Shown piece by piece: positions 27,745 through 40,379 of a stretch of DNA of 64,000 nucleotides. A program made the translations under genes and the position numbers. The notes beneath the pieces were generated by a model. It saw nothing but the letters and a program-made list of their open reading frames with translations. It made no database searches and was not told the origin of the DNA. Source of the stretch: a virus; the IMG/VR virus record IMGVR_UViG_3300032224_000591, positions 32,001 to 96,000 of that record, one strand, 5' to 3'. Numbering within the stretch: the stretch's first letter is position 1; every line of letters starts with the position of its first letter.

Positions 27745-29313
27745 ATGTTTGTAGCGTTTCTACCACGCCCAACTCAGGTTGTCACAATCTCATCTGCGGC
27801 AAACAACATCAACCTGTTCACGCAGGCTAGTAGTCCGCCGTATCCATTGAATCTACTCTGCTTTATCAATGCTGCAGTCGGCTCAACATCAAACACAACA
27901 CCTGCGTTCAGAACTGGTACCGGTTGGGTACCAGGCACATTCCTTTATATTCAAAATTCAAATACAGTTACTGGTGGCGCCGGCCCAACAGGAAGCACTG
28001 GAAGCACAGGAACACCTGGTACAACTGGCTCGACAGGAACTACTGGGCCCGCTGGAACACCTGGTGGAACTGGAACGACTGGAGCAACAGGAAGCACCGG
28101 TCCAGCAGGTGGTGGTGGCGCAGGTGGAGCACAGGGTGGGCACGGAGCAGGCGGCCGTGGTGGTAATGGCGGCGCTAACTATCTAGCAGGTGATGGTGGT
28201 TCCGCAGGAAGTTATGGTGCTACAGGAAATCCAGGTGGCCCTGGCGGAAATGGTACACCTGGTGGAACAGGTGGCACTGGCGGTACTGGCGGAAATGGAA
28301 CTAATGGAACAGCTGGTGGCCCCGGTGGAACAGGTGGCACTGGCGGTACTGGTGGAACAGGTGGTGCCGGCGGCAGCGGTGGTATCGCGCTTCAGGCTGA
28401 CACAGTCACTGGTCTTATCACAGTTGTAAATAATACAACTACAATTAGCGGCGGAACGGCGGGCCCCGGTGGTGCTGGCGGGACTGGCGGGCCAGGTGGC
28501 CCGGGCGGAGTAGGTGGTCCTGGCGGTGCGGGCGGTAATGCTGGGCCTGGCGGGCCTGGTGGTCCTGGCGGACCCGGTGGTGCCGGCGGGGCGGGTGGTC
28601 CTGGAGGAATTGGTGGTTACGGCGGTGGCGGCGGCGGTGGCGGCGGCGGATCCGGATTTTATGCACCAGGTGTTCGATTTGCGCCTACTAGTGCACTAAC
28701 TTATGTCCACGGTGCAGCAGGCGGTGGAGGTGGCGGAAGCTATGGTTCAGTTGGTGCTGGCGGTGATGGTGGTTGGACTTACTCACCAGCGTACTATTCA
28801 CCTGCAGGTAAAGCCGATCCGCCTAACTTGAATCCAGCATTTAACGTATTTGCTTACGGAGGTGCTGCAGGATCTGGTGCATCCGGTGGTTCAGGTGGTG
28901 GTGCCTGGTACGGTGGTGGTGCTGGTGGTCGGGGCGGAGACGCACAAAATTCTGGAGCAGCAGGAAATGCTGGTACTGGTCATCCAGTTTATGCGCCAGG
29001 TGGTAAAGCGGATCCGCCTTATATCTCATATTATGATACATATTGGGGCGGTGGTGCAGGTGGAGCAGCCGGTGGTCAGGGTGGATCAGGATCAACTGGG
29101 CCAGCAGGAACGCCAGGAAGTACTGGACCACAGGGCGCGACTGGCGCAGCCGGTAGTGCGGGATCGCCTGGAGCAACTGGCCCAACAGGGCCAACCGGAG
29201 CGACTGGGCCAACAGGGGCAACAGGAACACCGGGTTCACAAGGACCAGCTATATCAGGTACAGCAAATATTACTTGGATAAACAATGGTACAAGAAACGG
29301 ACCAATAGGATAA
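27745..29313 (+). CDS. gp38-like polyglycine receptor-binding adhesin with collagen-like G-X-Y expansions
   Basis: [13 protein letters not shown], polyglycine tracts flanking aromatic loops, C-terminal GPAISG..NITW...GTR.G.I resembling T2-type gp38; directly follows fibre genes. Confidence 0.65.
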
Positions 29314-29317
29314 AGAC

Positions 29318-29785
29318 ATGGACATTCATTACAAGATTCTAGAAGTAAACCCAAATGAACATGCGATTGTCGTTAGATATTTCAGTGATGTTCTTAGTGA
29401 GGAACAGCTAGTTATAAACGCCGAAGATCCTAATCGTAGAGATGATGGAAGCCCATGGCGTTGTCGCACAGACTATAATTTGAACTTACCGGTACCTGCT
29501 CCAGTAGGAGAGGAACTTCATAAATTTATTGTGATGTCAGCACCAATCGGCTGGTTTGATATGCAGCATAAAGTTGTAAATCCGGACATCGATACTTCGC
29601 TATCACATATCACTGAGTTAGTTGATCAACATATTACTATAACAGGTGAAGACATTTTTAAGGCCTTTAATGTTGAAGTATCTACAAATGAATTAACTGG
29701 ACTATACGAAGAGCCTACTGGACCAATGACAGAAGACGATATTGTAGAACTTTTGAAAAAGGCAGCCGCTGGACAAGTAGGCTAA
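29318..29785 (+). CDS. Hypothetical protein
   Basis: 155 aa ORF tightly coupled to the adhesin gene and the first PP-loop gene. Confidence 0.6.
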   Translation: MDIHYKILEVNPNEHAIVVRYFSDVLSEEQLVINAEDPNRRDDGSPWRCRTDYNLNLPVPAPVGEELHKFIVMSAPIGWFDMQHKVVNPDIDTSLSHITELVDQHITITGEDIFKAFNVEVSTNELTGLYEEPTGPMTEDDIVELLKKAAAGQVG

Positions 29786-29788
29786 TAA

Positions 29789-30859
29789 ATGGCATCTGGT
29801 CTTAAGCTAGGTAAGAATATTTTTTATTATGATGAGCATAATAACGTCTATGATAACAGACACGCTTTATTTGCTAATAGTAATGCAAAAGTAAAGAGAT
29901 TCTACTACTACGATAGAGAGTTCGATAAGGTTGACTGGAGAAAAGAACCTCCAGAAGATCTATGGACTCTCTATTCTAAAAGAGCACAACAGATCAGAGA
30001 TGATTATGAATATGTTGTGTTATGTTACTCTGGTGGTATAGACTCTACTACAATACTTGAAGCCTTTTACTACAACAATATTCATATTGATGAGATATTA
30101 GTAGTAGGTGCATTCTCTCAGGATAAGTTTGAAGGTGATGACACCAATCATAATGGTGACATCTACTACAATGTCTATCCTACGCTGAAGACAATGGATC
30201 TTCCAAACACTAAAATTACCATTAAAGACTACACTGATTATTTTGTAGATCCTAATAACTTTAGTCTAATCAAAGAATATGGTGATGACTTTAGTAAATT
30301 CTTAGGTTCATATACTAGTGTACACAATCTATTCTGGTATGACTTAAAGAAATTCATATCACTACCAGATAAGAAGGCTTGTTATATTATGGGGTCTGAT
30401 AAACCTAGACTAGCATTTCATTATGAAAATAGAAAATTCTTTACTCAGATAAATGACAATGCTGTAACTGACTATGGTGCAGCTATGTTTGATGATAACT
30501 TTACTAGGGTCAATTTCTATACACATCCAGATGCCCAAGAGATCATGCGTAAGCAGCTTCATATGATGATGCATTATTATATGCAGCAGGTCCTAGCAAC
30601 TCAACGGATGACTCATGATGATTATGATAAACACTATATAGCTATAGCAGATGCAATAATATATAACCTTAGAAATCCTCTGCAATTTAAGTCAAAGAAG
30701 TCTTCAATTGCATGCTTAAGTATAAGGGATACGTTTATACTAGATAAGCAAGACTCTAAAATGTTTCAGTTATATAAAGATTCATTGACTAGGATAGATA
30801 AAAAAGTAGCTATACCTAGAACTGGATTTAGGACTAAAGCATATTACATCACGGAATGA
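29789..30859 (+). CDS. PP-loop (adenine nucleotide alpha-hydrolase-like) ATP pyrophosphatase, paralogue 1
   Basis: RAQQIRDDYEYVVLCYSGGIDSTTILEAF; GSDKP motif. Confidence 0.7.
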   Translation: MASGLKLGKNIFYYDEHNNVYDNRHALFANSNAKVKRFYYYDREFDKVDWRKEPPEDLWTLYSKRAQQIRDDYEYVVLCYSGGIDSTTILEAFYYNNIHIDEILVVGAFSQDKFEGDDTNHNGDIYYNVYPTLKTMDLPNTKITIKDYTDYFVDPNNFSLIKEYGDDFSKFLGSYTSVHNLFWYDLKKFISLPDKKACYIMGSDKPRLAFHYENRKFFTQINDNAVTDYGAAMFDDNFTRVNFYTHPDAQEIMRKQLHMMMHYYMQQVLATQRMTHDDYDKHYIAIADAIIYNLRNPLQFKSKKSSIACLSIRDTFILDKQDSKMFQLYKDSLTRIDKKVAIPRTGFRTKAYYITE

Positions 30860-30862
30860 GTT

Positions 30863-31330
30863 ATGGATTATCTTTTCTATTTCCTTTTATGGACATTCAT
30901 GATATATTGGATGCATAGGTTAGTACATGTGGTTCCCTACGTAAGTAAGATCCATGGTGACCATCATGCCCAAGTATCACAGGAGACGATCCGTGGACTT
31001 CACTGGACGAACCTGTTTCTATTCTTTGATAGCTGGAAGAGTACTGCAGACCAATGGATCACTGAAGTTATTCCAACATTCATCTTGTGTTATATTACTG
31101 GACAGTGGTGGTTAATGATTTCTTACTATATCTGGGCAGCACTGATCCAAGAGTCTATTGAACACAATGAGAAGTTTGACTTGTACCCATTCATCACCAG
31201 TGGTAGATGGCATTTAATTCATCATAGAGATCCTAATTCAAACTATGGTGTATTCTTTCCTATTTGGGATGTATTATTTGGAACTTGGAAGGGAATAGAT
31301 GGCAACGTACAAAAATTGGTTCAGAAGTAA
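30863..31330 (+). CDS. Fatty acid hydroxylase/sterol desaturase family membrane di-iron enzyme
   Basis: His boxes YWMHRLVH, HGDHH, EHN, HLIHH followed by NYG....WD.LFGT; hydrophobic segments. Confidence 0.85.
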   Translation: MDYLFYFLLWTFMIYWMHRLVHVVPYVSKIHGDHHAQVSQETIRGLHWTNLFLFFDSWKSTADQWITEVIPTFILCYITGQWWLMISYYIWAALIQESIEHNEKFDLYPFITSGRWHLIHHRDPNSNYGVFFPIWDVLFGTWKGIDGNVQKLVQK

Positions 31331-32135
31331 TATCAGTGCGCGGACAGATCAAGCGTTTGACCTTGATGTTACTATAAAGAAGATTGATCAGTGGAACCTT
31401 GATACTCCATGGGATAAAGCTTCTGAGAACGTAGTAAAGCTTATAACTGACCTTGATAAGCCGATCTTTATTGGTTTAAGCGGTGGTATAGATTCAGAAT
31501 ATGTGTGTACTGTATTTGAAGAGGCTGAAGTCGATTATACTCCTGTACTCATTAGAACACAAGGTAATAAAGCCGAGTTAGAATATGCTTATAGCTTCTT
31601 AGGTAGATGGGGCCGATATGATAAGGCAGTAATAGTTGACAAGAAGAATGTCGACATGCTATCTACCTACTACTATAAATTACTTACCGGCTGTTTTGGT
31701 TATGGTTATAATTCTGTAGCAACGTATATGGTCGGTGAGTATGCAAAACAGAATGATGGTATATATGTTATGGCTGAACACCTGATTGATGATTATGATA
31801 CAGGTGGGTTTAAGGTAGGTTGTAATGAGTGGGACTTCTATAATGACTTGCTTTTAGGTGAGGACAATACACACTACTTCTTCAACTATACACCTGAGAT
31901 TAGTGCTGCTATGATTAGAGAATTCCCTGATTATAGTGATATACAGAAGTCTAAAGCAGAGTTCTATGGTCTAAAGTATAGACTAAAGATGCACTATGAA
32001 TATGATGAGCTTTATAATGATACATTAATGAAGCTTAGAAAGACTATAAAGCTTACACATAATCCAAATTATACATTTGGAACACCAAAAGAATACTTAA
32101 GAATGCTATCAGAGGTGCAAGATGAATCAACCTAA
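31299..32135 (+). CDS. PP-loop ATP pyrophosphatase-like protein, divergent paralogue 2
   Basis: KPIFIGLSGGIDSEYV motif; FFNYTPEI echoes the paralogues' FFWSPD segment. Confidence 0.6.
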   Translation: MATYKNWFRSNISARTDQAFDLDVTIKKIDQWNLDTPWDKASENVVKLITDLDKPIFIGLSGGIDSEYVCTVFEEAEVDYTPVLIRTQGNKAELEYAYSFLGRWGRYDKAVIVDKKNVDMLSTYYYKLLTGCFGYGYNSVATYMVGEYAKQNDGIYVMAEHLIDDYDTGGFKVGCNEWDFYNDLLLGEDNTHYFFNYTPEISAAMIREFPDYSDIQKSKAEFYGLKYRLKMHYEYDELYNDTLMKLRKTIKLTHNPNYTFGTPKEYLRMLSEVQDEST

Positions 32136-33006
32136 AGTACAAATAGGTAATGAGCAAACTCTACTGGAGACAAAGGAAAACCTTAAGTCATTAAGGGCAT
32201 ATAGTGCTGAGTATGCTTGGGGCAGTGACCTCTATACTGACTTTGAGAAAGCTTATGGTAAGTATCTATTAGTTCCATTTGATATTCCAAAGATTGTACC
32301 AAATGATACCAATAAATTTGTGTCATTCTGGTTCACCAGGGCCGCTAATGCTGTTAAGATTAAAACTGATATGCTTAGTAAAGATGGCGTTGGTACCGGT
32401 ACTAGTTCTCCATATCTACAGATAACTAGTACATCTGATAAGCATTCAGATGTCTGGAGCGATAATCCAGTCCCTGACATCTATACTGAGTTTCCGGAAA
32501 TCTTTGAGCAAGTGCATGAATATATGCCATTCATTACGCGCAAAGATTTTAAGTGGTATATGTGGTCATCAAACTGGAATGTGCCACCACACCGTGATTA
32601 TGGTTCACAGCTAGATTGTCCATCAGGTATTCGTATCATGTTGTTTGACAATAATCCAGAACCAACTTTAAGCATGACCGTATCACCTATAGGTAAGGTA
32701 TATGATCGTAAGTATCCTATTATTGTACCTGATGATACCAATAGTTTTGCTTGGAATAACCTTCGTCAGAAGCATGAGAGTGTATACAATAAAGGTCACC
32801 GAAAGGTGTTGTTTATTATCTCCCCAAAAGAGTTAACCTATTTTCTTAGCACTGTTGACAACAGAAAGACTATCAATAAATATGTTGATCTTCTGGACAG
32901 AAGCATAGCTAAATATAAAGATCATGTTATTGTAGATACAGATAATGACTATACAGACTACTTGGCATTGGATAAATCTGACCCAATAAATAGCATTATC
33001 AGATAG
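32122..33006 (+). CDS. Putative cupin/2OG-Fe(II)-type oxygenase
   Basis: VPPHRD (HxD) ... SFAWNN...KHES....RK (distal His), DSBH-like spacing. Confidence 0.45.
   Translation: MNQPKVQIGNEQTLLETKENLKSLRAYSAEYAWGSDLYTDFEKAYGKYLLVPFDIPKIVPNDTNKFVSFWFTRAANAVKIKTDMLSKDGVGTGTSSPYLQITSTSDKHSDVWSDNPVPDIYTEFPEIFEQVHEYMPFITRKDFKWYMWSSNWNVPPHRDYGSQLDCPSGIRIMLFDNNPEPTLSMTVSPIGKVYDRKYPIIVPDDTNSFAWNNLRQKHESVYNKGHRKVLFIISPKELTYFLSTVDNRKTINKYVDLLDRSIAKYKDHVIVDTDNDYTDYLALDKSDPINSIIR
32987..32992 (+). promoter_or_regulatory. Late promoter-like TAAATA
   Basis: AATAAATA 25 nt upstream of ATG 33018 (SD AGGAG). Confidence 0.5.
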
Positions 33007-33017
33007 GAGATATATCA

Positions 33018-33395
33018 ATGGCTGTTTACATCCATCACTACATTCATAAGTCTTCAAACAATACCTTTAATGGTAGGCAAGAGATGAATGCCTCGCAGCA
33101 ACTCGCTTATACAAACTGGAATGAATACTGTGTTCAAGTTCAACCGGGTTGGGTATCAACCGACGGGCCTATCGATATTGATGAAAATACTAGAAAGATA
33201 ACATACACTATCGATATGCAATCATATGATTTTATTAATCCACATGTTACTGATTTTTGGAAGAATACTCATGATGAAAATAATCAATACTATGCTGCAT
33301 ATAAAGCAGCATTTTCAGGTAGACTAAATCATAAATTCAGAGTCACTATTGAAAAAGATGGTGTAGAGACAGACTTTATTCCTCTTCCAGCTTAG
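33018..33395 (+). CDS. Hypothetical protein (module small subunit A)
   Basis: 125 aa, strong AGGAG SD; precedes a PP-loop gene. Confidence 0.6.
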   Translation: MAVYIHHYIHKSSNNTFNGRQEMNASQQLAYTNWNEYCVQVQPGWVSTDGPIDIDENTRKITYTIDMQSYDFINPHVTDFWKNTHDENNQYYAAYKAAFSGRLNHKFRVTIEKDGVETDFIPLPA

Positions 33396-33412
33396 TAAAA
33401 TGTTAGTATATT

Positions 33413-34615
33413 ATGAATCAACTACATTGTGGTTACTATACGTATAATGATAAAATCTATATTTCAAGAAGATCACTTCTTGATGATATAATTGCAGATA
33501 AAAGAAATTATGGTCTAGAGCATGATGTTCAATTTAATTTTAATGATGAAGTATTCAGCAAGTTAGATTGGACAGTTGAACCAGAAATTCCTTTAAAGAC
33601 TCTCTATAAAGACAGAGCACAACAGCTTAGGGATACATACGAGTATCTTATTCTTAGCTATTCAGGTGGTTCTGATTCACATGAAGTATTAAATATATTC
33701 TTAGAGAATGGTATCTTCATCGATGAAATACAGGTGGTTCATCAGTATAAATTAGTCAAAGCTTTACCTAAGAGTGTAATGGATGAAGATCCAGCTCTTA
33801 GAATGTGGTTAGAATTTGAGAAAGTAGCAGCTCCCGCACTACTTAAAGTAAAACAAGTCAGTCCAAATACTAAGCTTACTCTACTCGATGCATCTGACTT
33901 TATTGTTGATGATCTTACTACAAAGAAGTATGCATTTCTTGGACTAGATAAATTTGATACAAATGCTACATTCCTTGTTAGTACTACTCCATTTGCTAGA
34001 AACTACTTTCAACATCAGCATAATAGTAAGGTAACTACTTCTAGTAAGAAGACAGGATTTATACGAGGAACAGAGAAACCAAATCTTAAGATGTATCGTA
34101 ATACATTAAAGTTTAGCTTTACTGATGCTACAATGCATGGTATTAATCTCCTTCAGAATAGGGATATGAATGAGATATATAATATTGAAAATTTCTTTTG
34201 GTCTCCGGATGTTCCGTTGATACCTATCAAACAATCACATATTATTAAGAATGTTCTTGAGAATGACTCGTTATTCTATGCTCAATTCATGATCGCTCAA
34301 GAAAAAGCAATCATGCATACTGAGACAAATAAAAGAGGTATGTCAGGAGAGCAAGACTTTCAAAGAAAATATATTAAGTATATCTACTCATATGGAGATG
34401 AAATTAAATTTATAGCTCCTAAGAGAACATTAATATCACCTGAATTTGTAGCTACTGGGATACTGTTTGGCGAGACATCACATCATGATGCTCTCAAAGA
34501 ACAAAAGACTTTCTACAATACTAAGTATAAATCGATCGATGATCCTCGACTTCTAAATAGATCTATAGACTCAACTCGTTATGAAATTGGAGAGATAAAT
34601 GCAAAATGGAATTAA
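33413..34615 (+). CDS. PP-loop ATP pyrophosphatase-like protein, paralogue 3
   Basis: RAQQLRDTYEYLILSYSGGSDSHEVL..F..N.I.IDEI; RGTEKP; ENFFWSPD.PLIP.KQ.H. Confidence 0.7.
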   Translation: MNQLHCGYYTYNDKIYISRRSLLDDIIADKRNYGLEHDVQFNFNDEVFSKLDWTVEPEIPLKTLYKDRAQQLRDTYEYLILSYSGGSDSHEVLNIFLENGIFIDEIQVVHQYKLVKALPKSVMDEDPALRMWLEFEKVAAPALLKVKQVSPNTKLTLLDASDFIVDDLTTKKYAFLGLDKFDTNATFLVSTTPFARNYFQHQHNSKVTTSSKKTGFIRGTEKPNLKMYRNTLKFSFTDATMHGINLLQNRDMNEIYNIENFFWSPDVPLIPIKQSHIIKNVLENDSLFYAQFMIAQEKAIMHTETNKRGMSGEQDFQRKYIKYIYSYGDEIKFIAPKRTLISPEFVATGILFGETSHHDALKEQKTFYNTKYKSIDDPRLLNRSIDSTRYEIGEINAKWN

Positions 34616-35504
34616 GGGTGCAGTAGCTGGCTTGATGATGATTGGTTCTGCCTCGGCGGCAGAGCAGGTATCTATTATCACAAGCATTCCAACATCTGGG
34701 TCTGGTGGGCAGATCGGTGTCGGCATCACGCAGATTTTGAATAAGGTCCAAACAGAGCGTGAGTATAAGTTCTCACAGATTCCTGGAGCGCAGGGTGATA
34801 CATCAGCGCTAAAGGTATTAGTAGATGCTAAGCTTCAGAATGTAGTAATGTTCAACGGCATCTCCGTGACTACTACAAATCGATTGCTGAACCCAAACGC
34901 TGGATTCGATCGTGATAAGGACTTCATTCAGAGTGTAGGTATTGGTAAGAACTACTATGCCATTATGGTTAACCCTGACTCGCCTATCAAGAACGTTGAT
35001 GACCTAGTGAAGTCGATCAAGAGTAAACCAAAGGCTTTCTTCTCGACCACCCTCACTGCTCCAGGTTCCGTTATCATCAATGACATCTTCCTGAAGAGGT
35101 ATGGAATCACTGATAAGGTTGACTCTATCAATTATAAGTCACCTCAAGATATTATCCTTGCACTGAACAACAAAGAGTCAGACTATACCATCTTCACGGT
35201 TTCTGATATGACTAATCTGAAGGCTATCATGGTATCGTCAGAGAAGCGTTTGATCCAGTTCCCTGACGCACCTACAGCCAAGGAAGCCGGGTTTGATGCA
35301 TTCTCACTATCATCTATTCTGATGTTCTCTATTCCTAAAGAGCGTGCTAGTTTTCAGAAGACCTTTGAGGATGATATGAAGAAGGCTTGTGCTCACCCTG
35401 ACTATGAGCGTGTTGCCATGATTCGTGCTCCTTACAGGTCAGAGTGCATGACACCGGCTGATACTATGGCAACAGTTGTAAACGAACTTAAGACGATCAG
35501 ATAA
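34599..35504 (+). CDS. TctC/Bug-family periplasmic solute-binding protein (divergent)
   Basis: Signal peptide ending ASA-A; IPGAQG; MVNPDSPIKNVDDLV; INYKS; RLIQFPDAPTAKEAGF. Confidence 0.75.
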   Translation: MQNGIKGAVAGLMMIGSASAAEQVSIITSIPTSGSGGQIGVGITQILNKVQTEREYKFSQIPGAQGDTSALKVLVDAKLQNVVMFNGISVTTTNRLLNPNAGFDRDKDFIQSVGIGKNYYAIMVNPDSPIKNVDDLVKSIKSKPKAFFSTTLTAPGSVIINDIFLKRYGITDKVDSINYKSPQDIILALNNKESDYTIFTVSDMTNLKAIMVSSEKRLIQFPDAPTAKEAGFDAFSLSSILMFSIPKERASFQKTFEDDMKKACAHPDYERVAMIRAPYRSECMTPADTMATVVNELKTIR

Positions 35505-35507
35505 ATA
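35502..35507 (+). promoter_or_regulatory. Late promoter-like TAAATA
   Basis: GATAAATA overlapping the TctC stop, 22 nt upstream of ATG 35530. Confidence 0.5.
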
Positions 35508-35529
35508 TTATCAGAAATGGGGGATCTTC

Positions 35530-35940
35530 ATGGTAATTTTAAGACGAATTTATACTAAAAATGACGGTGAAGATTGGAGAGGTGTATGGGTACCAGGTGA
35601 ACATACTGACCCACGCGACTCTAGCATTTTTGATGAGACAGAAGTTCAGCATATTCGTCAATTTAATGATCCAAGAAACTTTGTAGGATATAGTAAATTC
35701 ATACGTAAGTATGCTACTGATAATGAGTTAGTGTTTGACCTATATTTTGACACCCTTGAAAATGCACGTGTGTATTATAAAGCGTGTAGAGATAACCTTA
35801 ATACACCACTTAACACACTTATTCATGAGAAAATTGTTGATAATATGATTCCAGTTTATCAGAAAATATGGAAATTATACAGTATTGAAAATAATATTGA
35901 ATTTGAGTTTCCATTGACCTCAAAAGGATATGTACCGTAA
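35530..35940 (+). CDS. Hypothetical protein (module small subunit B)
   Basis: 136 aa; same relative position as 33018-33395, overlapping the next PP-loop gene. Confidence 0.6.
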   Translation: MVILRRIYTKNDGEDWRGVWVPGEHTDPRDSSIFDETEVQHIRQFNDPRNFVGYSKFIRKYATDNELVFDLYFDTLENARVYYKACRDNLNTPLNTLIHEKIVDNMIPVYQKIWKLYSIENNIEFEFPLTSKGYVP

Positions 35941-37141
35941 TATTATGAATCATGATTATGATCAGCTGCATCTAGGTTATTACATATATGATAACCAGAA
36001 GTTCTTAACCCGTGAGGGTGCTTTAGATATGATGTTAGCTAAAGAGGATTATGAAGGTAATATCCAATTTTATTATAATGATCATATCTTTGATAAGATG
36101 AATTGGCGTATAAATTCTTCAATTTCAATATCAACATTCTATAAAATGCGAGCGCAGCAGCTAAGAGACAAGTACAAGTATCTTATTCTGAGATACTCAG
36201 GTGGAAGTGATTCTACACAGGTGCTAGAATCATTCCTAAAGAATAAAATCTTCCTAGACGAGATAGTAGTCATTAACCATCAGAAAGCGATCAATAATCT
36301 AGATCGAACTATGATGCTTAATGACCCTACTCTTAGTGAGTATTTAGAGTATGAAATGGCTGTAGTACCACAGCTAAAGAGGGTTAAAGAGCTCAGCCCC
36401 AATACTAAGATTACTATATTGGATTCATCTGACAATTTAATTGATCAGTTGGGCAATAAAAAGTATGAGCATCTAGGTAAGAATGATGAGCCTCGATCTT
36501 TAAGATATGTTGTTGGTGGATTGATGAAGAACTGGACACCGGTGCTTATCAAGTATGAACAACAAACAGCAACTAAAGAAGGTGTAGCCGTTATCCGCGG
36601 TTTAGAGAAACCATATATTAAGATTACTGATAGAGGTAAAATTTTATTTTCTTTTTATGACATCACAATGACTGCTACACTGTCTATGCAAAAGTCTGGA
36701 TCACCATACACTATTGAAGACTTTTTTTGGTCACCTGACTATCCACTTATTCCAGCTAAACAGGCACATATGATCGTTGATGCTCTCTCTAAGAATGAGG
36801 CACTGTTCAATGAATGGAAATCTATAAAGGCTATGATTCATCAGGCATGGCTTGATCCTGAATTAAAAAGTTCACCTGGATATATCCTAGATAGATGGTA
36901 TAATAAAATCATCTATCCAGATTGGAATCCAACTACATACGTAGCACCAAAACCTACAAAAATAAGTGCTGATTCTAAACTAGTTAGTACATTAGGTATA
37001 CAACATAATACTTTAGACTTTACGATTGAGTATTCTGAATATAAAAAGAAGCGCTACGAGAAGATAGTAAATAAGCAGCTACTTAACAGGTATATCTTCT
37101 CAAGAACCTATTATCTGGGTGAATTTCAACCACAATTCTGA
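35930..37141 (+). CDS. PP-loop ATP pyrophosphatase-like protein, paralogue 4
   Basis: RAQQLRDKYKYLILRYSGGSDSTQVL..F..N.I.LDEI; RGLEKP; EDFFWSPD.PLIP.KQ.H; closely similar to 33413-34615. Confidence 0.7.
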   Translation: MYRNIMNHDYDQLHLGYYIYDNQKFLTREGALDMMLAKEDYEGNIQFYYNDHIFDKMNWRINSSISISTFYKMRAQQLRDKYKYLILRYSGGSDSTQVLESFLKNKIFLDEIVVINHQKAINNLDRTMMLNDPTLSEYLEYEMAVVPQLKRVKELSPNTKITILDSSDNLIDQLGNKKYEHLGKNDEPRSLRYVVGGLMKNWTPVLIKYEQQTATKEGVAVIRGLEKPYIKITDRGKILFSFYDITMTATLSMQKSGSPYTIEDFFWSPDYPLIPAKQAHMIVDALSKNEALFNEWKSIKAMIHQAWLDPELKSSPGYILDRWYNKIIYPDWNPTTYVAPKPTKISADSKLVSTLGIQHNTLDFTIEYSEYKKKRYEKIVNKQLLNRYIFSRTYYLGEFQPQF

Positions 37142-37149
37142 GGATTATA

Positions 37150-38079
37150 ATGAGAGCTTTAATACTTGCATTATCGATGATAGTGACAAATGCTGCATAT
37201 GCAGCCAAACAAATCGACATCTACTCTATGTTCTCGCCGGGTGCAGCGGGTACTATCATCGGTTACGAAGTAGTCAATAGGCTTAACACTGTACAGAGTG
37301 AGTATGAGTTTCGACTATCATCACTACCTGGTGCTGGTGGAGATATTGCCGCACTAAGAGTAATTGCACTAGCACGTACCGGTCAAGATGTTCTAATATG
37401 GCAGGGAACCGGTAGCTATACATTTGGTAAGTATACCTCTGCAAATATTAATGCATATGACCGTGATAATGATCTAGTACCTATTGCTTCATTCTCAGGT
37501 ACACCATTTCATTTAATGGTTGAACCAGATTCTGAGTTAAAAACATTAGCTGACCTAGTAAGTCAGTTTAATAAGAAGGACGTTGTTTACTTTGGTAGTA
37601 CAGCAACAAATCCGATAACACCATTCCTTAATGCTATCTTCATGAAGAGCAATGGCTTAAAGCCTTCGAAGGATCTAAACTATACAACACCATTTGATAT
37701 TACTAAAAGTGTCCTTAGTAAGGAATCTGAATATACTATATTCTCACCAACAGATGTTAGAGGTTTAAGATCACTAGTTATGTCAGGCCCAGAAAGATCT
37801 AGACTATATCCAAATGTACCTACAGGTAAAGAGCTTGGGATGAAAGACTTTGTCTTTACATCAACAATGCAGATTGCAGTTCCTAAGGAGAAGTCTGAGT
37901 TCGGTCTTAAGTTTACACGGATGATGCTTCAAATCTGCTATGACCAGAAGTTCAATGATGCTGTTGAAAAGATTGGATACGAAACAAAATGCCTCTCCGG
38001 CGATAAGCTAAAGAGCTCAATCAAAGAAGAGGCATTGATGATTAAAAAGTATGAAAACGATGTTGTCTGGAAGCCTTAA
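37150..38079 (+). CDS. TctC/Bug-family periplasmic solute-binding protein (divergent)
   Basis: Signal peptide ending AYA-A; FSPGAAG, LPGAGGDIA, DLVPIA, RSRLYPNVPTGKELG. Confidence 0.8.
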   Translation: MRALILALSMIVTNAAYAAKQIDIYSMFSPGAAGTIIGYEVVNRLNTVQSEYEFRLSSLPGAGGDIAALRVIALARTGQDVLIWQGTGSYTFGKYTSANINAYDRDNDLVPIASFSGTPFHLMVEPDSELKTLADLVSQFNKKDVVYFGSTATNPITPFLNAIFMKSNGLKPSKDLNYTTPFDITKSVLSKESEYTIFSPTDVRGLRSLVMSGPERSRLYPNVPTGKELGMKDFVFTSTMQIAVPKEKSEFGLKFTRMMLQICYDQKFNDAVEKIGYETKCLSGDKLKSSIKEEALMIKKYENDVVWKP

Positions 38080-38690
38080 ATAAACTTAGGTCCAACAACC
38101 CAAACCACGATCGACTTACGTGTTCCACTGGTTACTGGTGTAACACGGTGTCCAATAAATGAAGGGAAGAGAACACATCTTCCCTTTTTTCTTTCAATTG
38201 TAATTGGCTCATCTTGATTACCATCACATACCTGGAAATCACCACCCTCAAAATCATCATTCAGCATTAGTGTCAATGATAGTTTGCGCGTATCGTGCAT
38301 GTTTTGTGGCATATGTCCAAACCCCATATCCATATGCCAGTTATACTCACCTAATTCTGCTGCATCATATGTAGTGTATTGAAATGTTTCATAACCATTT
38401 AGATTAAAGTTATAGTACATCTCATTAATGCTTTGAACAACAAAATTCAACTTATCAAAGATCCAAGATGTTTCTGGATTTCTCATGTGAAATTTAATAT
38501 TTGACTTACGAACCTTTTCAGTAACTTCTTGATCACCTGAGAAAGTAGTACCTCGCTCTGTTCCTTGAGCATCACACCAAGCAATAAGTGTATTAAGCTC
38601 TTCTTCAGTAAATGCGTCATCCCAATATGTCCACGCATGTGTGATACGTGCACGGCGATATGGATCGTTATACAGTGTTGTATATGTCAT
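38076..38690 (-). CDS. 2OG-Fe(II) oxygenase (PKHD/prolyl-4-hydroxylase-like)
   Basis: YNWHMD, RKLSLTLML.DDFEGGDF, FPSF..HRVTPVTSGTRKSIVVW. Confidence 0.9.
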   Translation of the reverse strand: MTYTTLYNDPYRRARITHAWTYWDDAFTEEELNTLIAWCDAQGTERGTTFSGDQEVTEKVRKSNIKFHMRNPETSWIFDKLNFVVQSINEMYYNFNLNGYETFQYTTYDAAELGEYNWHMDMGFGHMPQNMHDTRKLSLTLMLNDDFEGGDFQVCDGNQDEPITIERKKGRCVLFPSFIGHRVTPVTSGTRKSIVVWVVGPKFI

Positions 38691-39376
38691 TTGCGGAAAA
38701 TTCTCCAGTTATATGATGGTTGAATACCGGTAGGCTTTGCCTCAATTTTTCTATAGGTAAAGAATATATCACCAGCAAGGCAGACACGCTTCTTCTTTAG
38801 ATCATCCAAACACTTACAGCCTTCATCAAGCTCTGAGTTGCCATAACCTACAGTATGATGGCTGAGTCTAGCTGGGAATACAAATAGATTGCCTTCACTT
38901 GGAGCAAATCCAGTGTCGTATGCGTTAAACTTATTCTTCTCTGTCGAGTTGAACCTAATCATGCCATAGTATGGGTCGTTCATATGTGGTGGTGTAGATG
39001 AGAAGACAATAGGCTTCTCTAACTGATCGGGTATATTAGCATAGTAGGTGAATGACAGATGAGCATCCTCATGACTGTGGAAAGGTGTATGTCTCTCCTT
39101 GGTAATATTCATCCATGTCTTGACAATGTTAATGTCAAATGTTTCAGGATCAATAGCAAGTGTATGAAGGTACTCCTCAACTACTCCTGTGATATATCCA
39201 AAAAGTGGTGCAAATGCTTCCTCATGATGAATATTGACATGTCCAGTATACTCATTCGAGTAACCTTCGATCGTCATATAGTTCATCAGCTTGCTTAGAA
39301 AGATAGGCTTAAACTTATCAGCATCCCTATACTGATCTTCAATAACGAGAGTTGGGAACAGCGCATGTCTAATCAT
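38687..39376 (-). CDS. Putative 2OG-Fe(II) oxygenase (TIGR02466-like)
   Basis: LFPT N-terminus, W.N......H.H....LS..YY, P.EG.L.VFP..L.H, R.CLAG. Confidence 0.8.
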   Translation of the reverse strand: MIRHALFPTLVIEDQYRDADKFKPIFLSKLMNYMTIEGYSNEYTGHVNIHHEEAFAPLFGYITGVVEEYLHTLAIDPETFDINIVKTWMNITKERHTPFHSHEDAHLSFTYYANIPDQLEKPIVFSSTPPHMNDPYYGMIRFNSTEKNKFNAYDTGFAPSEGNLFVFPARLSHHTVGYGNSELDEGCKCLDDLKKKRVCLAGDIFFTYRKIEAKPTGIQPSYNWRIFRK

Positions 39377-40332
39377 CTATTTGCCTCATTCAACTTTTTC
39401 AGTTCACCTGCAAATTGGCCACCTATCTTAATTTGATACGTAACCAGTTTTTCTGCTTCATTATAATCAATCATATTCACTTCAACGTTCATCTTCATAG
39501 CCTCAGCTAGATAATCAGGGTCGGCTAGGGCTTTCTTGAATGCTTCACGTAGTTCATCTCTAGTCCATGGCGGAATACCCGGCGGCGCAACAAATGGTCT
39601 TAGCATTGAGTAGCTTGCCTCTACAATAGATAGTATTGTTTTGTCCATATCTGATTGTACTACCTCTGCAAGGGTTTGTACATCTTTATATTCAGGATGC
39701 CTATTAGTTCCATTGCCAAATTGCATGCATGCCTTAATACCTGAGTCTGGCTTTAACCAGTGTGGCTTTTGAGTCTTAATACCGACTAAGTTATAGACTA
39801 CGGCATCAACCTCTTTTCTCTCAAGTGCAAGTCTAGCATCACCGGTCGTAGCATAACCGGTGACGATCTTAGCATCTAGCTTAGCTAGGTCACGAACAAG
39901 GAAGGCTGGATTCACACCGGCATAGTTCTCAGAGCCGATGATCTTTGGATTATCAGTATTACACCATACGATGACCGCATCCTTACGGCCATCAACGTTA
40001 GATCCGATCCAGGTGAACTTACTAGCATCATACTGAACATTAGGTCCACCGAGAGCGCCGACTAATGGAATCTCTTTATAGAACGTACCAATGACTGATC
40101 CATCCTTAGGTGCGTGATTATATAGGTAGTTAGCTGCAACCATACTTGCTGCTCCAGGCATAGACTGGATAATAAGTGTAGGATGATTAGGGTGATGCTT
40201 AACTAGGTACTTACCGAGGACTCTGGCATTGATATTATAACTATCGTTGTCAGATGGGACAATAATCTTTAAGGTGTCTGCCGCAACTGATGTGACCATT
40301 AGGGTCAAAGCGAGGGCAATCGCTCGAAACAT
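39373..40332 (-). CDS. TctC/Bug-family periplasmic solute-binding protein
   Basis: Signal peptide; IIVP....YN..AR, MPGAASMVAANYLYN.APKDGS.IG, F.WIGS, GY......LALER.EVD, RPFVAPPG.P. Confidence 0.85.
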   Translation of the reverse strand: MFRAIALALTLMVTSVAADTLKIIVPSDNDSYNINARVLGKYLVKHHPNHPTLIIQSMPGAASMVAANYLYNHAPKDGSVIGTFYKEIPLVGALGGPNVQYDASKFTWIGSNVDGRKDAVIVWCNTDNPKIIGSENYAGVNPAFLVRDLAKLDAKIVTGYATTGDARLALERKEVDAVVYNLVGIKTQKPHWLKPDSGIKACMQFGNGTNRHPEYKDVQTLAEVVQSDMDKTILSIVEASYSMLRPFVAPPGIPPWTRDELREAFKKALADPDYLAEAMKMNVEVNMIDYNEAEKLVTYQIKIGGQFAGELKKLNEANR

Positions 40333-40371: not shown

Positions 40372-40379
40372 TATTTATA
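40372..40379 (-). promoter_or_regulatory. Perfect T4 late promoter TATAAATA driving the minus-strand TctC/oxygenase operon
   Basis: TATTTATA on the + strand, about 40 nt upstream of the minus-strand start at 40332. Confidence 0.65.

Follow-up and report, generated by a model that had tools for sequence, protein, structure and literature searches.

Why would a T4-like phage carry, side by side, two versions of a cassette in which a small protein, a PP-loop enzyme and a TctC-type solute-binding protein follow one another? The question is raised by IMG/VR virus record IMGVR_UViG_3300032224_000591, complete at 167,756 bp with direct terminal repeats at its ends, of which we analysed positions 32,001-96,000 (hereafter the window, 64,000 nucleotides, to which coordinates refer unless genome positions are named). 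The genome has T4-like gene content, and from its Porin_2 gene (PF02530, E 4e-45) we infer an alphaproteobacterial host. The two modules, S1-PP1-TctC1 and S2-PP2-TctC2 (S, PP and TctC being gene shorthand; Table 1), sit in an island with a Gly-rich tail-tip gene (27745) on one side and the neck gene gp13 (40389) on the other, a position known as the "host recognition cluster" of aquatic myophages (PMC7029224). We tentatively favour the reading that each module is a self-contained late unit for the uptake-coupled adenylation and amide ligation of a small carboxylate, in which S would be an abundant, non-catalytic helper.

An initial annotation, made from the sequence alone, had described a tandem duplication of a three-gene module. 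The six open reading frames, their order and their sizes were all recovered at the same coordinates on the plus strand, with intra-module gaps of at most 25 nt. PP1 and PP2 are 38.8% identical over 402 aa (E 3e-81) and both hold the PP-loop protein motifs listed in that annotation; TctC1 and TctC2 are 31% identical over 296 aa (E 4e-49) and share the listed TctC motif, save for a V at its first position in TctC2. The small proteins had been judged dissimilar, which is correct for their pairwise alignment but not for their families: with profiles built from related phages, the S1 and S2 families align by hhalign at 93.8% (E 1.8e-7), with cross-HMM matches to 5e-6 and 1e-10, and a single S profile searched against the genome finds exactly two copies, S1 and S2. 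By their profiles S1 and S2 are thus remote paralogues, and because their families are homologous the repeat consists of three paralogous pairs. The duplication is not recent. DNA likeness between the modules is limited to short patches of about 65% identity, and module 2 is closer to L029 (L-numbers denote the phage loci compared, G-numbers the records), a locus with a single module of the second type, to which PP2 and TctC2 are 67% and 79% identical against 39% and 31% to module 1. Loci L007-L012 have the module-1 type only, while the near twins L083 and L084 retain both modules in unchanged order. We read the modules as old paralogous versions standing side by side, perhaps two specificities in one slot.

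The PP proteins have no family name in Pfam, PHROGs or NCBIfam, and a sequence search of the PDB was empty. The structure model of PP1 (pLDDT 93) has as its best VIA matches human ASNS (Z 11.2, rmsd 5.4, 293 aligned), E. coli AsnB (11.0) and beta-lactam synthetase (10.1), followed by carbapenam synthetase and TsnB9 at 9.3, against at most 7.7 for other PP-loop enzymes, and it aligns to AsnB-type folds over 270-290 residues. PP therefore appears to have the fold of the synthetase domain of asparagine synthetase B and its relatives (AsnB 1CT9, ASNS, the beta-lactam and carbapenam synthetases, TsnB9; 240-293 residues aligned, Z 9-11), with which it has the SGGxDS loop and presumably the acyl-adenylate chemistry in common. 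Unlike these relatives, with which its identity is 8-10%, it has no Pfam Asn_synthase match, is virus-only in these searches, is paired with an exported binder and lacks a glutaminase domain in the protein and in the genome: only about 55 residues precede the synthetase core of PP1, and PF13537 is absent from the complete genome. PP as AsnB proper was rejected on the absence of the N-terminal Ntn glutaminase domain with its Cys1. Among 159 diverse PP proteins, S84-G-G-x-D88, R68, R73, D104, E105, G219, K222, D238, F261, K273, Q274, Y325 and K337 are 92-100% conserved, of which only the PP-loop was mapped onto AsnB residues; such conservation would be as expected for an active enzyme. The family numbers 1,807 representatives at 50% identity clustering, its Atlas clusters are 99-100% viral and it has more than 500 IMG/VR matches; two pattern scans of GTDB genomes, of limited sensitivity, found it in no cellular genome, and no cultured phage gave a match. 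No fusion of PP with TctC or S was found. The matches of 651-689 aa join PP to PPB, a short PP-loop protein also encoded in the island, and the search among proteins of 756-2155 aa was empty, which is weak evidence and leaves 700-756 aa uncovered.

That phages repurpose this fold is known from CmoY of Synechococcus phage S-B43, an AsnB-like ligase that adds glycine to carboxymethylcytosine (PMC12783734) and thus, as PP may be, a phage-encoded PP-loop amide ligase (about 270 aa). CmoY, however, neighbours the DNA-modification genes CmoA and CmoX, whereas the PP module is late-type, linked to TctC and flanked by a fatty-acid-hydroxylase-family enzyme (FAH), PPB and oxygenases. An identification of PP with CmoY was rejected, as the PP profile does not match CmoY (hhalign 2.7%) and the CmoA/CmoX neighbourhood is missing.

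The second line of evidence concerns the expression of S. In both modules the S gene is preceded, some 30 nt upstream, by a TAAATA late-promoter motif and also has a purine-rich ribosome-binding site, and the same late motif precedes the sheath, tube, scaffold and capsid genes of this phage; the repeat unit appears to include its own late promoter. Across 27 non-redundant S upstream regions, the late motif (TATAAATA-type, 20-50 nt before the start codon) is present in 21, compared with 39 of the 362 regions taken from six other island families, a difference whose p-value (4e-14) is overstated because the loci are related; gp13, taken as positive control, has it in 11 of 12. A Shine-Dalgarno (SD) sequence stands in 24 of the 27 regions, while promoter and SD reach about 10% for the island enzymes. 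Codon adaptation does not set S apart, and sigma-70 promoters and terminators were found at no more than chance level. S thus seems to carry the expression signals of an abundant, stoichiometric protein, which fits a role as carrier, substrate or specificity factor. A possible internal late promoter is the CTAAATA at 34553-34559, which lies within the 3' end of PP1, 46 nt ahead of TctC1, but such a motif precedes only 13% of TctC genes, a share near background. Phage genes for DctP, the TRAP binding protein (L047, L069, L070, L077, L117 and others), have the late motif in 10 of 12 cases and an SD in 11 of 12.

What S does is less easily read. It has no signal peptide and no match in Pfam, PHROGs or NCBIfam, nor does S1 have one in the Atlas. 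The S1 model (pLDDT 83) has ferredoxin-like topology, and the highest-ranking fold matches fall almost entirely among ABM, NIPSNAP, mutarotase and DABB proteins, although with middling scores (best Foldseek E 2.7e-3, TM about 0.5; VIA Z 7.2, rmsd 3.1, 94 aligned). One might speculate that S is an ABM-like, cofactor-free tailoring enzyme (an oxygenase, cyclase or mutarotase) in a three-step mini-pathway, possibly remodelling envelope lipid or lipopolysaccharide (LPS) against superinfection. The fold matches would agree with this, as would the radical SAM enzyme that takes the S slot in relatives, the hydroxylase- and oxygenase-type neighbours in the island, and the envelope remodelling that has been proposed for such islands (PMC7029224). 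We consider it quite unlikely, because the fold match is middling and because S, for all the likeness of its predicted topology to the dimeric alpha-beta barrels of the ABM, NIPSNAP and DABB families, has no sequence match to them and no conserved active site: mean column identity in the S alignment is 21%, K11 is the only residue conserved at 90% or more, and there is no conserved catalytic residue and no invariant His or acidic residue. The expression signals of S, moreover, are unlike those of every island enzyme.

These same signals would suit another role, close to the substrate function that the initial annotation had suggested for the small protein, in which S is the covalent acceptor, amidated or acylated by PP as an abundant late protein that may decorate the virion or act on the host. 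There is precedent in QatC-QatB and Cap9-CdnD, where a PP-loop enzyme modifies its partner protein (PMC13376578) and, as here, stands beside a protein without assigned function. S is also the fastest-evolving gene of the cassette (mean tree distance 2.43, against 1.27 for PP and 0.78 for TctC), it has been swapped together with PP1 (see below), and S1-type proteins keep to the PP1 clade even where they follow TctC. Against this stand the want of any conserved acceptor residue or terminus beyond K11, the many PP-TctC pairs that have no S beside them or a radical SAM gene in its stead, the occurrence of S behind PP0-type enzymes (L032, L173), and the fold of PP, which is nearer to small-molecule ligases (Z 11) than to QueC/QatC (5.6-5.8), the QatC and Cap9 enzymes being of the QueC type and serving host defence. 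An acceptor role thus appears unlikely. An acyl carrier protein was not found in the genome, and among the module neighbours no gene was seen for a short precursor peptide, RRE or leader peptidase, as a RiPP or lasso peptide cluster would have. A complex prediction for S1 with PP1, both given as alignments, scored 0.01 against a mark of 0.32 and has no bearing either way.

The third line of evidence is linkage. Of the 36 non-redundant enzymes in the clade that holds PP1 and PP2, 32 adjoin a TctC gene, and 72 of 87 TctC genes touch PP, counts biased upward since the loci were collected by PP similarity; PPB touches TctC in 7 of 53 cases and FAH in 1 of 26. Across the whole family PP adjoins TctC or DctP in 66 of 144 loci, in upstream, downstream, convergent and divergent arrangements. 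The triplet order that was expected of related phages is kept only in part: PP-TctC adjacency is conserved, but S-PP-T is found in 9 clade members (including L019), PP-T-S in 7, an inverted order in L016 and S-T-PP in L101, and a radical SAM/SPASM gene occupies the S2 slot in two close relatives. PP-TctC is the fixed core and S the looser member. In L016, L017 and L019-L021 the PP-TctC pair runs opposite to the remaining island genes, and in L016, L017 and L021 S lies on the opposite strand with its own promoter. A candidate S gene in L026 was not supported (hhalign 1%).

The near twin L083 shows how these genes are exchanged. Its other island and neck proteins are 78-99% identical to those of the present phage, but S1 is 35%, PP1 65% and TctC1 96% identical. 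Divergence at four-fold sites is 0.79 in S1 and 0.61 in PP1 (near-saturated), against 0.31 and 0.26 in the flanks, so that S1 and PP1 have been replaced as a block under an unchanged TctC1. This swap, a single event, ties S to PP and loosens TctC from any particular PP allele. The cognate binding proposed for TctC thus does not extend to a matching allele by allele, and since TctC is exported whereas PP needs cytoplasmic ATP, the two would be linked through the ligand and not through a complex.

Tree distances give a similarly mixed answer. Correlations among S, PP and TctC across modules (Mantel r 0.68-0.78, resting largely on one deep split between module types) exceed those of most flanking genes (-0.02 to 0.42), and the third TctC of the island correlates with PP at 0.66. 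Within clade 1, the values are 0.49 for PP-T, 0.61 for PP-S and 0.70 for T-S, none above the 0.84 of PP with PPB. The co-phylogeny of PP and TctC that the initial annotation had suggested as a check holds between module types and not inside clade 1, where co-variation is no better than plain linkage; gene-specific co-evolution was rejected as an established result, and what the trees and the swap document is exchange in blocks. That each module is a unit is upheld by the PP-TctC pairing, by the replacement of module types independently of flanking genes and by the joint swap, and weakened by the variable order and by co-variation at the level of PPB. It could be argued that only PP-TctC is a functional pair and that S is an independent late gene lending its promoter, the triplet being a recombination block, as S varies in position and orientation, always brings its own promoter and is correlated with PP within the clade no better than unrelated neighbours are. 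This we find improbable, because whole-record searches of five T4-like relatives detected S nowhere but near PP, its subtype tracks the module subtype across rearrangements, and in this genome its copy number equals that of the modules.

The assignment of TctC is firmer as to family than as to ligand. TctC1 and TctC2 match PF03401 (E 8e-13 and 3e-11; 49 and 43.7 bits, against a curated cut-off of 27) and solved Bug/TctC proteins in the PDB (to 4e-15). A signal-like N-terminus, by a hydropathy heuristic only, is seen in 31 of the 32 clade TctCs, and a C-terminal Cys pair in all 32. They have in common with TTT/Bug proteins, including orphan Bugs and BctC, the Pfam and PDB homology over most of their length, the signal peptide and the orphan status; unlike these, they are phage-encoded and ligase-linked, have the Cys pair and have lost the signature motif. 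TTT binding proteins beside the enzymes they feed have been described in bacteria (PMC5812351). Transport is further suggested by the TctA genes that lie within PP clusters at three independent loci (L189/L196, L075, L144), by the DctP gene that adjoins PP in some loci and by the porin gene that precedes the PP3 clade.

As side observations, the most complete uptake-plus-ligase cluster among the loci compared is L196:4407-12946 (record G013, minus strand), with oxygenase-like genes, a TctC-like gene, tctA, two PP genes, an AMP-binding enzyme and radical SAM genes; its 276-aa gene upstream of tctA has a TctC-like look, with no Pfam match (hhalign 25%). Some large phage records have, at a distance from PP, a tctB-tctA pair or two copies of tctA (L195:7461-9419 in record G012, and G024), and a 456-aa membrane-like protein without Pfam match, possibly another transporter, follows PP in L119 (1362-2732) and L151. 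Phage tctA has been noted before, without function (PMC4164917).

An orphan exported binder might also serve in signalling. In Bordetella, BctC acts with the sensor kinase BctE (PMC5812351), and PP could by analogy make a late amide signal which, freed by lysis, would be detected in nearby infected cells by TctC, acting through a host sensor kinase, and would tune lysis timing, the alleles acting as dialects. Late timing as suggested by the promoter motif, the altered pincer loops of the binder and the allelic exchange would all agree with such a circuit. We regard it as distinctly improbable, for TctC1 remained 96% identical while PP1 was replaced, the TctA permeases within some clusters indicate transport, and no recurring sensor or regulator was seen beside PP.

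The favoured reading, uptake coupled to ligation, would proceed as follows. A T4-type late promoter and a strong ribosome-binding site would drive S to high levels, PP and TctC being made by read-through; the signals are in the sequence, the timing is deduced from them. TctC, by analogy with its family, would be exported to the periplasm, bind a small carboxylate and pass it to a TctA-type permease, for this phage the host's and in some relatives phage-encoded. PP would then adenylate the carboxylate with ATP and join it to an amine as AsnB-fold ligases do, as its fold and conserved residues suggest; because it has no glutaminase domain, we propose that it uses an organic amine or free ammonia. 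S may assist without catalysing, as a carrier or specificity helper that is produced in surplus and swapped along with PP. The hydroxylase, the oxygenases and PPB would make further changes to the product, for which a cell-envelope or small-molecule conjugate is the likeliest candidate.

Besides the inflated adjacency counts and the co-variation within clade 1, several observations weigh against this reading. The carboxylate-pincer motif P-F-x-A-G-G-x-x-D, described as almost ubiquitous in the TctC/Bug family (PMC5812351), is complete in none of the 32 clade TctCs, both copies here included, and in 3 of 89 phage TctCs, so that the ligand may not be a carboxylate. Neither tctA nor tctB was found in this genome, and whole-record searches found TctA in only 3 of 40 related, mostly incomplete records. 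S was undetected in 11 of the 36 clade loci, more than half of the wider PP family is without an adjacent binding protein, and late expression is an odd timing for nutrient uptake.

Other genes of the island bear on the cassette to different degrees (Table 1). The pair 29318/29789 had been taken for a third pair of small open reading frame and PP-loop gene, and it is not a module copy: C5 belongs to another family (hhalign below 3% against S; late promoter in 1 of 14 members only), and PP0 falls in a separate clade and has no TctC downstream. In L080, a complete 60-kb phage with the gene order C5-T3-PP-OG, a C5 protein (L080:4378-5184) has a C-terminal extension that is weakly S-like (hhalign 28%, E 6e-4), too weak to support a C5-S fusion. 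A fourth PP paralogue lies outside the window (genome 17083-18204), in a region (genome 15719-20013 = L001:7720-12014) where it stands between an alphaproteobacterial porin gene and DUF2061 and radical SAM/SPASM genes, an arrangement shared by at least 10 related phage loci. In four database proteins (P0007, P0022, P0023, P0028) PPB forms the N-terminal part of a fusion with a PP1-type enzyme, giving tandem PP-loop didomains; PPB is therefore probably in the same pathway as PP. The AspH-like gene has a 46%-identical paralogue at genome 119715-120503. The Gly-rich tail-tip gene (27745-29313) has collagen-like Gly-X-Y runs directly before the island and is a possible target of the island's 2-oxoglutarate (2OG) oxygenases.

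Table 1. Genes and promoter motifs of the two modules and of the surrounding island (window coordinates).
Feature	Position	Strand	Remarks
C5, island gene	29318-29785	+	Conserved directly behind the Gly-rich tail-tip gene; not an S paralogue
PP0	29789-30859	+	Distant PP paralogue (~30%), own clade, without TctC link
FAH, fatty-acid-hydroxylase-family di-iron enzyme	30863-31330	+	PF04116, E 4e-17
PPB, short PP-loop protein	31299-32135	+	Distant PP homologue (hhalign 96.5%)
Probable AspH/LpxO-like 2-oxoglutarate oxygenase (lead only)	32122-33006	+	Atlas feature match 0.94, cluster with PF05118 on 27% of members
Late promoter motif AATAAATA, module 1	32985-32992	+	T4-type; followed by a GGAG ribosome-binding site
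S1, 125 aa	33018-33395	+	Predicted ferredoxin-like (ABM/NIPSNAP/DABB-like), hypervariable, without signal peptide
PP1, 400 aa	33413-34615	+	PP-loop SGGSDS at 84-89; predicted asparagine-synthetase synthetase fold, without glutaminase domain
TctC1, 301 aa	34599-35504	+	Predicted exported TTT/Bug-type solute-binding protein, divergent pincer loops, C-terminal Cys pair
Late promoter motif GATAAATA, module 2	35500-35507	+	Overlaps the TctC1 stop codon; retained in L083/L084
S2, 136 aa	35530-35940	+	Remote S1 paralogue
PP2, 403 aa	35930-37141	+	PP1 paralogue; different subclade, together with L029 and L019
TctC2, 309 aa	37150-38079	+	TctC1 paralogue
Convergent operon: third TctC-like gene and two 2OG-Fe(II) oxygenases	38076-40332	-	TATAAATA at 40372-40379

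The component folds and the type of island are already known. The host recognition cluster of pelagi- and cyanomyophages is likewise a variable island between tail-fibre and neck genes filled with enzyme cassettes, but the content described for it is glycosyltransferase/LPS and radical SAM genes, with no PP-TctC-S cassette and without the word "asparagine" in the text (PMC7029224, part consulted), and our literature search found no paper describing the PP family or the cassette. New here are the homology of S1 and S2, the dedicated late promoters, the allele swap of S with PP, the presence of TctA within related clusters and the negative control on co-evolution. It is conceivable, if somewhat unlikely, that the cassette represents a new kind of widespread, virus-only system: late in infection a lytic phage would use its own periplasmic binder to take up a metabolite from the environment and, by means of interchangeable enzyme/S alleles, would attach it to S, the virion or an envelope target, or else would release it as a signal between infections, tandem cassettes providing several specificities. 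The large PP family has so far been seen, in these searches, only in uncultured aquatic phages, which fill their tail-neck islands with "auxiliary" enzymes of unexplained purpose. The cassette narrows this question to three proteins that are soluble and expressible and for which nature supplies cognate and non-cognate alleles, namely two modules in one genome and a near twin with S and PP swapped, and makes it directly testable. The usual reading of auxiliary genes as serving nutrient uptake does not accommodate phage solute-binding proteins that are late-type and tied to a ligase.

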